DNA from: a virus
Taxonomy: Duplodnaviria > Heunggongvirae > Uroviricota > Caudoviricetes
DNA: 42,529 nucleotides
Virus record (IMG/VR): IMGVR_UViG_2718218227_000014
Strand: one strand, 5' to 3'
Below are positions 36,001 through 39,000 of this stretch, piece by piece; the stretch's first letter is position 1, and each line of letters begins with the position of its first letter. A program made the position numbers.

Positions 36001-39000
36001 GACCGCAGTTAGCGCACGTTAAAGCCCGCTCGACGCTTTCTTGTTCGTAACTTCGATTTTGGTCAATCACCTTGTTTTCCTCGCACAATGTCTTAGCCAC
36101 CGGATATCCCACAGGTGAGCCGTGTAGTTGAAGGTTTTTACGTCAGATTCTTTTGGGATTGGCTTGCGTTTATTTCTGGAGCGTTTCGTTGGAAGGTATT
36201 TGCAGTTTTCGCAGATGATGTCGGTGAAACTTCGTCGCTGTCGTCTCATGCCGCCCTGTCTCCCCATCGCGCTTTCATGCCAGCGATGCGCAGTTCATCG
36301 CATTGTTGATCGTCGCCAACCAGTACGGCCTTAATCCGTGGACGAAAGAAATTTACGCCTTCCCTGATAAGCAGAACGGCATCGTTCCGGTGGTGGGCGT
36401 TGATGGCTGGTCCCGCATCATCAATGAAAACCAGCAGTTTGATGGCATGGACTTTGAGCAGGACAATGAATCCTGTACATGCCGGATTTACCGCAAGGAC
36501 CGTAATCATCCGATCTGCGTTACCGAATGGATGGATGAATGCCGCCGCGAACCATTCAAAACCCGCGAAGGCAGAGAAATCACGGGGCCGTGGCAGTCGC
36601 ATCCCAAACGGATGTTACGGCATAAAGCTATGATTCAGTGTGCCCGTCTGGCCTTCGGATTTGCTGGTATCTATGACAAGGATGAAGCCGAGCGCATTGT
36701 CGAAAATACTGCATACACTGCAGAACGCCAGCCGGAACGCGACATCACTCCGGTTAACGATGAAACCATGCAGGAGATTAACACTCTGCTAATCGCCCTG
36801 GATAAAACATGGGATGACGACTTATTGCCGCTCTGTTCCCAGATATTTCGCCGCGACATTCGCGCATCGTCAGAACTGACACAGGCCGAAGCAGTGAAAG
36901 CTCTTGGATTCCTGAAACAGAAAGCCACTGAGCAGAAGGTGGCAGCATGACACCGGACATTATCCTGCAGCGTACCGGGATCGACGTGAGAGCTGTCGAA
37001 CAGGGGGATGATGCATGGCACAAATTACGGCTCGGCGTCATCACCGCTTCAGAAGTTCACAACGTGATAGCAAAGCCCCGCTCAGGAAAGAAGTGGCCTG
37101 ACATGAAAATGTCCTACTTCCACACCCTGCTGGCTGAGGTTTGCACCGGTGTGGCTCCGGAAGTTAATGCTAAGGCGCTGGCCTGGGGAAAACAGTACGA
37201 GAACGACGCCAGAACCCTGTTTGAATTCACTTCCGGCGTGAATGTTACTGAATCCCCGATCATCTATCGCGACGAAAGTATGCGCACCGCCTGCTCTCCC
37301 GATGGTTTATGCAGTGACGGCAACGGCCTTGAGCTGAAATGCCCGTTTACCTCCCGGGATTTCATGAAGTTCAGGCTCGGTGGTTTCGAGGCCATAAAGT
37401 CGGCTTACATGGCCCAGGTGCAGTACAGCATGTGGGTGACGCGAAAAGATGCCTGGTACTTTGCCAACTATGACCCGCGTATGAAGCGTGAAGGCCTGCA
37501 TTATGTCGTGGTTGAGCGGGATGAAAAGTACATGGCGGGTTTTGACGAGATGGTGCCGGAGTTCATCGAAAAAATGGACGAGGCACTGGCTGAAATTGGT
37601 TTTGTATTTGGGGAGCAATGGCGATGAAGCATCCTCACGATAATATCCGCGTAGGCACGATCACTTTCGTCTACTCCGTTACGAAGCGAGGCTGGGTATT
37701 TCCCGGCCTTTCTGTTATCCGAAATCCGCTGAAAGCCCAGCGGCTGGCTGAGGAGATAAATAATAAACGGGAGGCGATATGCACAAAGCATCTCCTGTTG
37801 AGTTAAGAACGAGTATTGAGATGGCACATAGCCTTGCTCAAATTGGAGTCAGGTTTGTGCCAATACCAGTAGAAACAGACGAAGAATTTCATACGTTAGC
37901 CACATCCCTTTCGCAAAAGCTGGAAATGATGGTGGCGAAAGCAGAAGCAGATGAGAGAGACCTGGTATGACAACCACTGAATGCATTTTTCTGGCAGCGG
38001 GCTTCATATTCTGTGTGCTTATGCTTGCCGACATGGGACTTGTTCAATGACACCTCAGCAAGAAAACGCCCTTCGCAGTATTGCCCGTCAGGCTAATTCT
38101 GAAATCAAAAAAGCCAGACAGCCGTTTCCGGATAAAAACGTCGATGACATTTGCCGTAGCGTACTGAAGAAGCACCGCGAAACGGTAACGCTGATGGGAT
38201 TCACACCGACTCACTTAAGTCTGGCAATCGGCATGTTAAACGGCGTCTTTAAGGAACGGTGAACATGAAAAGCAAAATCATCAGGGAGCTACAGGCTCCT
38301 TTTTTATTATTCGCATTCACCCTCAAGCGTATTAACCAACAATTCAGGGATTAATGGAAGATGGCAGACATCATTGATTCAGCATCAGAAATTGAAGAAT
38401 TACAGCGCAACACAGCAATAAAAATGCGCCGCCTGAACCACCAGGCTATATCTGCCACTCATTGTTGTGAGTGTGGCGATCCCATAGATGAGCGAAGACG
38501 CCTGGCCGTTCAGGGTTGTCGGACTTGTGCAAGTTGCCAGGAGGATCTGGAACTTATCAGTAAACAGAGAGGTTCGAAGTGAGCGAAATTAACTAGAAGC
38601 CAAAGATAAAATCATCGCTGAGCAGGAGAAAATCGCTAACGGAGAAAAGACAGTAAGTCAGTATATGAAAACCGCATGATATCATCAGATAAAAATCGAT
38701 CGTAAAGCGAAATATTAATACCAGAATAAACGAGTCGAGGTAAATTATATTACCTCGATAAATTAACTAAAACTTGCCCGCTATATACTATCTCATTCAG
38801 TATCATCACGCGCGGTCTGTGCATATGTTACTACCGCACCTAATGTATTAATTTTCTTTTCAACATAGATAATATTATCGTACTCATAATTGCCATACGG
38901 ATAGCAAATGCGAATATTCTCATGTAGATCGGGGTCATCCACCTCAGCTCCAGAACAACTTTTTGAACTACCGGAAGTATACCGATACGGTGCAACATAA

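Follow-up and report, generated by a model that had tools for sequence, protein, structure and literature searches.

Cryptic lambdoid prophages whose early, regulatory or structural modules have partly been lost, and which have become fixed in the chromosome, are well known from E. coli K-12, where DLP12, Rac and Qin are examples. These three occupy other attachment sites than the element described here, are much more depleted of structural genes and lack type III effectors as cargo. Much closer is prophage Sp3 of E. coli O157:H7 Sakai, the counterpart of CP-933K in EDL933. Sp3 was described as lacking CI/Cro and O/P and as having a disrupted Exo-Bet-Gam (Red) system, and neither circularisation, excision, replication nor packaging was found experimentally (Asadulghani et al. 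2009, PMC2669165). In a transcriptomic study of a clinical isolate Sp3 was not excised under SMX-TM induction (PMC5931665), and SP3 was named among the 'fixed' prophages conserved across strains (Shaaban et al. 2016, PMC5359411). The deletion is thus already known, from the RefSeq bet pseudogene and from the description and experimental tests of 2009; new here are the exact breakpoints, some corrected details and two different deletions in sister strains.

The stretch of DNA analysed (the window, 42,529 nucleotides) is the lambda-like prophage Sp3 (Sakai) / CP-933K (EDL933) of E. coli O157:H7, inserted at the lambda attachment site. The Sakai annotation of the same element reads 'prophage Sp3, lambda-like phage'. 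The order at the right end is xis, int, the 15-bp att core and then chromosomal ybhC, and a second att core, read in a near-identical strain, is located ~3.9 kb left of the window beside ybhB. As in Sp3/CP-933K, the element with its lambda-type int/xis and 15-bp core is therefore situated between ybhC and ybhB/bioA. On the left are the type III effector genes nleH1-1, nleC and nleB2; then come lambda-like genes for tail, head, packaging and lysis, and after these Q, lpxR and the nin region. In the PGAP annotation of identically organised strains the three effector genes lie past the tail fibre genes, as expected for the cargo of Sp3; nleD is just outside the window, and the prophage DNA left of the window consists of nleD and gene fragments only. 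At ~38.6 kb, the element has the complete lambda-like set of head, tail and lysis genes and lacks a gene for replication. It resembles Sakai Sp3/CP-933K in the identical junction, the ybhC-int...ybhB locus, the nleB2-nleC-nleH1-1 set and the bet pseudogene, and differs from Sakai Sp3 in being of the 644-PT8/180-PT54 type, with three IS629/IS1203 insertions and an intact int. The feature coordinates are exactly those of strain 644-PT8, and an 8-kb stretch including the IS629/IS1203 in Q had single-piece matches to 644-PT8 and 180-PT54 only. The features relevant to the following are:

31238 to 32547 (approximate), minus strand: IS629/IS1203 in the antiterminator gene Q, with Q fragments at 30976-31242 and 32548-32979
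34625 to 36070, minus strand: retained nin genes ninF, ninG and Ser/Thr phosphatase (pphA/ninI), from the ORF list and PGAP
36067 to 36249, minus strand: ninE, intact, from the ORF list and PGAP; its natural transcription source pR is deleted
36246 to 36276, minus strand: 3' remnant of ninB, 31 nt, consisting of 1 nt, the codons KARWGDRAA and the stop
36276 to 36277, no strand assigned: deletion junction ninB'/'bet, blunt, microhomology 0 nt, without filler or IS remnant
36277 to 36950, plus strand: bet pseudogene, nt 113-786 of 786, without start codon and without the pL promoter
36947 to 37627, plus strand: exo (lambda exonuclease), intact, 226 aa, promoter absent
39845 to 40063, plus strand: xis, from the ORF list and PGAP
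40041 to 41111, plus strand: int, intact, 356 aa, from the ORF list and PGAP
41185 to 41199, minus strand: attL, the 15-bp lambda att core TTAGTATAAAAAAGC, adjoining ybhC

The original prediction placed an abrupt junction between ninE and the interior of bet, and this junction proved to be real. Phage homology on the nin side stops at 36276 (99.5% to phage 2B8, 97.6-97.9% to phage 21, 96.5% to HK022) and bet homology begins at 36277 (99.3-99.8% to phages 434, BP-4795 and lambda relatives); the E-values of these flanking matches were 0, which places them beyond chance. A base-by-base walk against the undeleted orthologue in strain CB9615 also put the break between 36276 and 36277. The junction reads GCTTTC/ATGCCA (the slash marks the break); the sequence on either side is parental, and an IS629 end is absent. 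The check for microhomology that the original prediction had called for was run against phage 2B8, PV15-279 and CB9615, and gave 0 nt of shared bases at the break.

Several details of the prediction could be sharpened. The start of ninE at 36249 on the minus strand agrees with the ORF list and PGAP. The distance between ninE and bet, given as ~30 bp, is correct as well, 27 bp separating the ninE ATG from bet, but these bases are not an anonymous spacer: 36246-36276 is the tail of ninB, which overlaps the ninE ATG by 4 nt. In CB9615, PV15-279 and phage 2B8 ninB ends in exactly the sequence of this remnant, the tblastn match to the NinB tail agrees with the assignment, and ninB directly precedes ninE in phages 2B8, 21 and HK022. 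Similarity to bet starts near 36277 as proposed, but bet is broken in codon 38, at its position 2, rather than at codon ~47, which is merely the first TTG of the residual bet ORF. The remnant retains 674 of the 786 nt of bet, Bet residues 39-261 align at 100% identity (tblastn), and a RecT match was found with Pfam. PGAP calls the gene partial at 36279-36950, and its Sakai counterpart is the pseudogene ECs_0810. That bet has lost both start and promoter was borne out, the first 112 nt being deleted and pL being gone by position. The adjoining exo has the same protein accession as in CB9615. The only ORF running across the junction is a 118-aa ORF on the minus strand (36246-36602), which reads bet' in antisense and, staying in frame, takes in the last nine ninB codons. 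This junction-dependent ORF has neither a promoter nor family support and is probably spurious, and a fusion ORF across the junction was rejected as a candidate.

CB9615 is a strain of the O55:H7 lineage, the presumed source of O157:H7. Its orthologue of the prophage (NC_013941.1, ~980.8-1,013 kb) occupies the same attachment site by ybhC and has the same late gene order, and its Int, Xis, Exo, NinE, phosphatase and Q proteins have accessions identical to those of the window's strain type. The CB9615 prophage keeps a 7,432-bp early region which the window has lost. Window position 36276 corresponds to base 31057 and 36277 to base 23624 of the CB9615 locus, so that the deletion measures 7,432 bp relative to this strain; the flanks of the two breakpoints in CB9615 are GCTTTC/CATTCG on the nin side and AAGGCG/ATGCCA on the bet side. 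From bet to ninE the gene order in CB9615 is gam, kil, cIII, a DUF2528 gene, a 149-aa ORF, ral (frameshifted), N, a small frameshifted ORF, hicA, a DUF1902 gene, the repressor gene (HTH plus S24 peptidase), a gene for a Cro-like HTH protein, cII, O, P, ren and ninB. Pfam matches were obtained for N (N_peptide), HicA (HicA_toxin), CI (HTH_3 and Peptidase_S24), Cro (HTH_3), CII (Phage_CII), O (Phage_rep_O), P (Phage_lambda_P) and NinB (NinB). The DNA lost from the window thus comprises nt 1-112 of bet, all genes from gam to ren, and ninB except its last 31 nt. The lost CI repressor is of the SOS-cleavable type. The list of lost genes drawn up earlier from the lambda map was approximate, as the ancestral type has no ninC/ninD (ninB abuts ninE) and has hicA/DUF1902 in place of rexAB. 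This hicA toxin gene with its DUF1902 (HicB-like) partner occupies 26465-27057 of the CB9615 locus and was lost with the deletion.

Because the early genes are found between the same flanks in CB9615, the window has lost them rather than lacked them natively. CB9615 is a close proxy and not the literal ancestor: at 36300, no more than 25 bp from the junction, its sequence departs from that of the window, and it has defects of its own. Its bet and ral genes are frameshifted, and its capsid gene contains an internal stop that is absent from the window. The bet frameshift in CB9615 is due to an extra G (cacagggaac, compared with cacaggaac in phage 2B8; locus ~23660-23680). Since the site lies within the part deleted in O157, bet may have been dead before the deletion, or the extra G may be specific to CB9615.

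Sixteen lambda early proteins and the products of the same genes in a closer relative, one whose cro accession and CI length are the same as in CB9615, were compared with the window by tblastn. The lambda queries included gam, kil, cIII, ea10, ral, sieB, N, rexA/B, cI, cro, cII, O, P and ren. The matches were confined to Bet 39-261, Exo and the NinB tail, and no other query gave a match in the window below E = 0.02. Among the small and hypothetical ORFs, Pfam recognized only DksA/TraR, DUF1317, DUF1382 and RecT, with no HTH repressor or replication domain, and PGAP annotated no repressor or replication gene in the same 42.5-kb stretch of two strains. These results, together with the presence of the genes between the same flanks in CB9615, agree with the earlier statement that the prophage has no repressor, N or replication genes. 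The search for cI, cro, O and P homologues elsewhere in the window, where a relocated immunity or replication gene should have appeared, was likewise negative. The sequence comparisons thus support the absence of the whole immunity, antitermination and replication block from the element.

In two sister strains the same prophage at the same locus has also lost its immunity region, but by other deletions. O157:H7 PV15-279, of the beta-glucuronidase-positive lineage, keeps ninB, ren, P and part of O. Here the arrangement is O'/IS1203/'exo, with the IS1203 joined to exo at ~codon 26 (locus 22356-26701). Between the truncated O and the IS of PV15-279 there is a stretch of ~146 bp of unassigned sequence (locus 24642-24787), which suggests an additional rearrangement in this strain. 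O55:H7 DEC5E keeps ninB and ~30 bp upstream of it, in the arrangement ninB/IS3-family/'int, with int joined at ~codon 13 (locus 22536-25346). DNA of ninB that is missing from the window is still present in both strains, and CB9615 retains everything, from which it follows that the immunity region was deleted at least three separate times in this clade, although a smaller first lesion inside the common interval may have been shared. The PV15-279 and DEC5E junctions were each found in one complete genome only, and as common intermediates they were rejected for this reason. No published account of the Sp3/CP-933K locus in O55:H7 or PV15-279 was found, the PV15-279 paper included. The breakpoint map and the sister deletions could be of use in lineage typing and in studies of prophage decay.

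O157 genomes contain many near-identical lambdoid prophages and are prone to short-read misassembly, so it was important to consider that the junction might be an assembly or scaffolding artefact joining two non-adjacent prophage fragments. A 50-bp probe centred on the junction, of which neither half alone can seed a match, matched 295 of the 5426 complete E. coli genomes, with a single match per genome, at 100% identity and always in the chromosome. The matches include Sakai, where the feature is annotated 'prophage Sp3', and EDL933, both with 50 of 50 bases identical, and among the matches listed every serotype-labelled record is O157. An identical junction at the same locus in 295 independently assembled genomes, many of them long-read, rules out an assembly artefact, the probability of which we regard as practically nil. 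It is also highly improbable that the element is a native, helper-dependent (satellite-like) one which never had immunity or replication genes, so that there was no deletion. The retention of int, xis, packaging and lysis genes and the many potential helper prophages nearby would suit such an element. However, the genes at the junction are truncated, bet being cut within codon 38 and ninB reduced to 31 nt, and the CB9615 orthologue at the same site carries the full block. A complete lambda-like head and tail module is present rather than satellite genes; with its ~38.6 kb, full structural module and lack of a replication gene of its own, the element does not have the make-up of a phage satellite. 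Neither excision nor packaging was observed in the published experiments (PMC2669165, PMC5931665).

We are therefore nearly certain that the ninB'/'bet junction is the scar of a non-homologous deletion by which Sp3/CP-933K lost its control and replication genes, and no observation spoke against a deletion. A junction of this blunt kind favours illegitimate end joining over homologous or microhomology-guided recombination. With 0 nt at the break and nearby direct repeats at chance level (one shared 6-mer within +/-40 nt of the breakpoints, compared with 1.2 expected in shuffled sequences), a microhomology- or repeat-mediated deletion was rejected. A simple IS-adjacent deletion, as judged from the scar, was rejected as well, since an IS end, an inverted-repeat remnant and a target duplication are all absent from the junction. 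A less direct role of an IS is conceivable, though unlikely: an IS629/IS1203 could have inserted in the early region and then been lost, with flanking DNA, by excision assisted by the IS-excision enhancer (IEE), leaving an IS-free junction. IS629 has been very active in the element, three copies being present in the window, and in the sister strains PV15-279 and DEC5E IS elements of the same family lie within the early region and border the different deletions. According to PMC9943667, citing Kusumoto 2011, IEE-dependent excision of IS629 is reported to give adjacent deletions of a few nt to >40 kb. The same source describes IEE as a microhomology-guided end joiner, whereas the microhomology here is 0 nt. 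The junction itself, lacking IS end, inverted-repeat remnant and target duplication, also speaks against this route, CB9615 has no IS in the deleted interval, and no intermediate genome was found, each of the two IS-bounded junctions occurring in a single genome. Generic illegitimate end joining is thus more likely than the IEE route. The final junction would fit a single event as well as several nested ones. A wider reading, in which three or more separate losses of the early region within the O55:H7/O157:H7 clade reflect repeated selection to lock the nleB2-nleC-nleH1-1-nleD island into the chromosome, largely driven by IS629/IEE and with the blunt junction as an IEE footprint, seems to us doubtful.

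By comparison with the lambda map, pL/oL and pR/oR should, from their position, have been lost with the deleted segment, and the replication origin would also be gone, assuming that it was located inside O as in lambda. The scar is flanked by a divergent pair of gene groups, with ninE-ninF-ninG-phosphatase running leftward and bet'-exo rightward. A consensus-based promoter scan of 2.5 kb detected two promoter-like sites where 2.3 were expected from shuffled sequence, and none near the junction; a new promoter at the junction and promoters for bet'/exo and ninE were rejected, the scan being at chance level. With the early promoters, N, the origin and O/P gone, early transcription would be unable to start, Q would be undriven, and int/xis would be driven neither from pL nor from a cII-dependent promoter. 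From the lost promoters and the consensus scan we infer that exo, ninE-G and int/xis are silent. The element would then neither replicate nor be inducible, and would persist as a fixed chromosomal island keeping its cargo genes nleB2, nleC, nleH1-1 and lpxR, each presumed to have its own promoter, with nleD just outside the window. The expected loss of autonomous replication is supported by these results. The accompanying statement that the prophage cannot maintain lysogenic control is moot, because pL, pR and the operators were lost together with the repressor and nothing is left to repress. The deletion explains why Sp3/CP-933K, instead of being a mobile phage, is stable and passes its four type III effector genes on vertically.

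The int gene of Sakai Sp3 was reported to be disrupted (PMC2669165), whereas int in the window is intact, and the published non-excision of Sakai Sp3 may therefore transfer incompletely to a strain with intact int. In CDC#03-98 int has a 4-bp (ATGG) deletion at nt 62-65. The Int protein of the window has the accession of the O55:H7 CB9615 protein. A 66-bp int probe matched 208 genomes at 90-95% identity, a range consistent with the deleted allele. From these comparisons the intact int allele looks ancestral and in the minority.

The element has further defects and variants. Transposase coding sequences of IS629/IS1203 are located at 4996-6209 in the tail fibre gene, at 14219-15432 in the tape measure gene and at 31280-32493 in Q, and by splitting Q the last of these copies adds a defect that is specific to the strain. 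The portal gene, one gene of 1509 nt in CB9615, is broken into two ORFs in the window (22881-24462). Between the phosphatase gene and Q lies an inserted gene, lpxR, for a lipid A deacylase (33454-34628). Beside it 72 nt of a different antiterminator gene remain (34557-34628), and this remnant looks like the scar of an older module exchange. The length of ninG (35287-35910 in the window) is 621 nt in 644-PT8, 624 nt in Sakai and 630 nt in CDC#03-98, which points to a small in-frame indel polymorphism.
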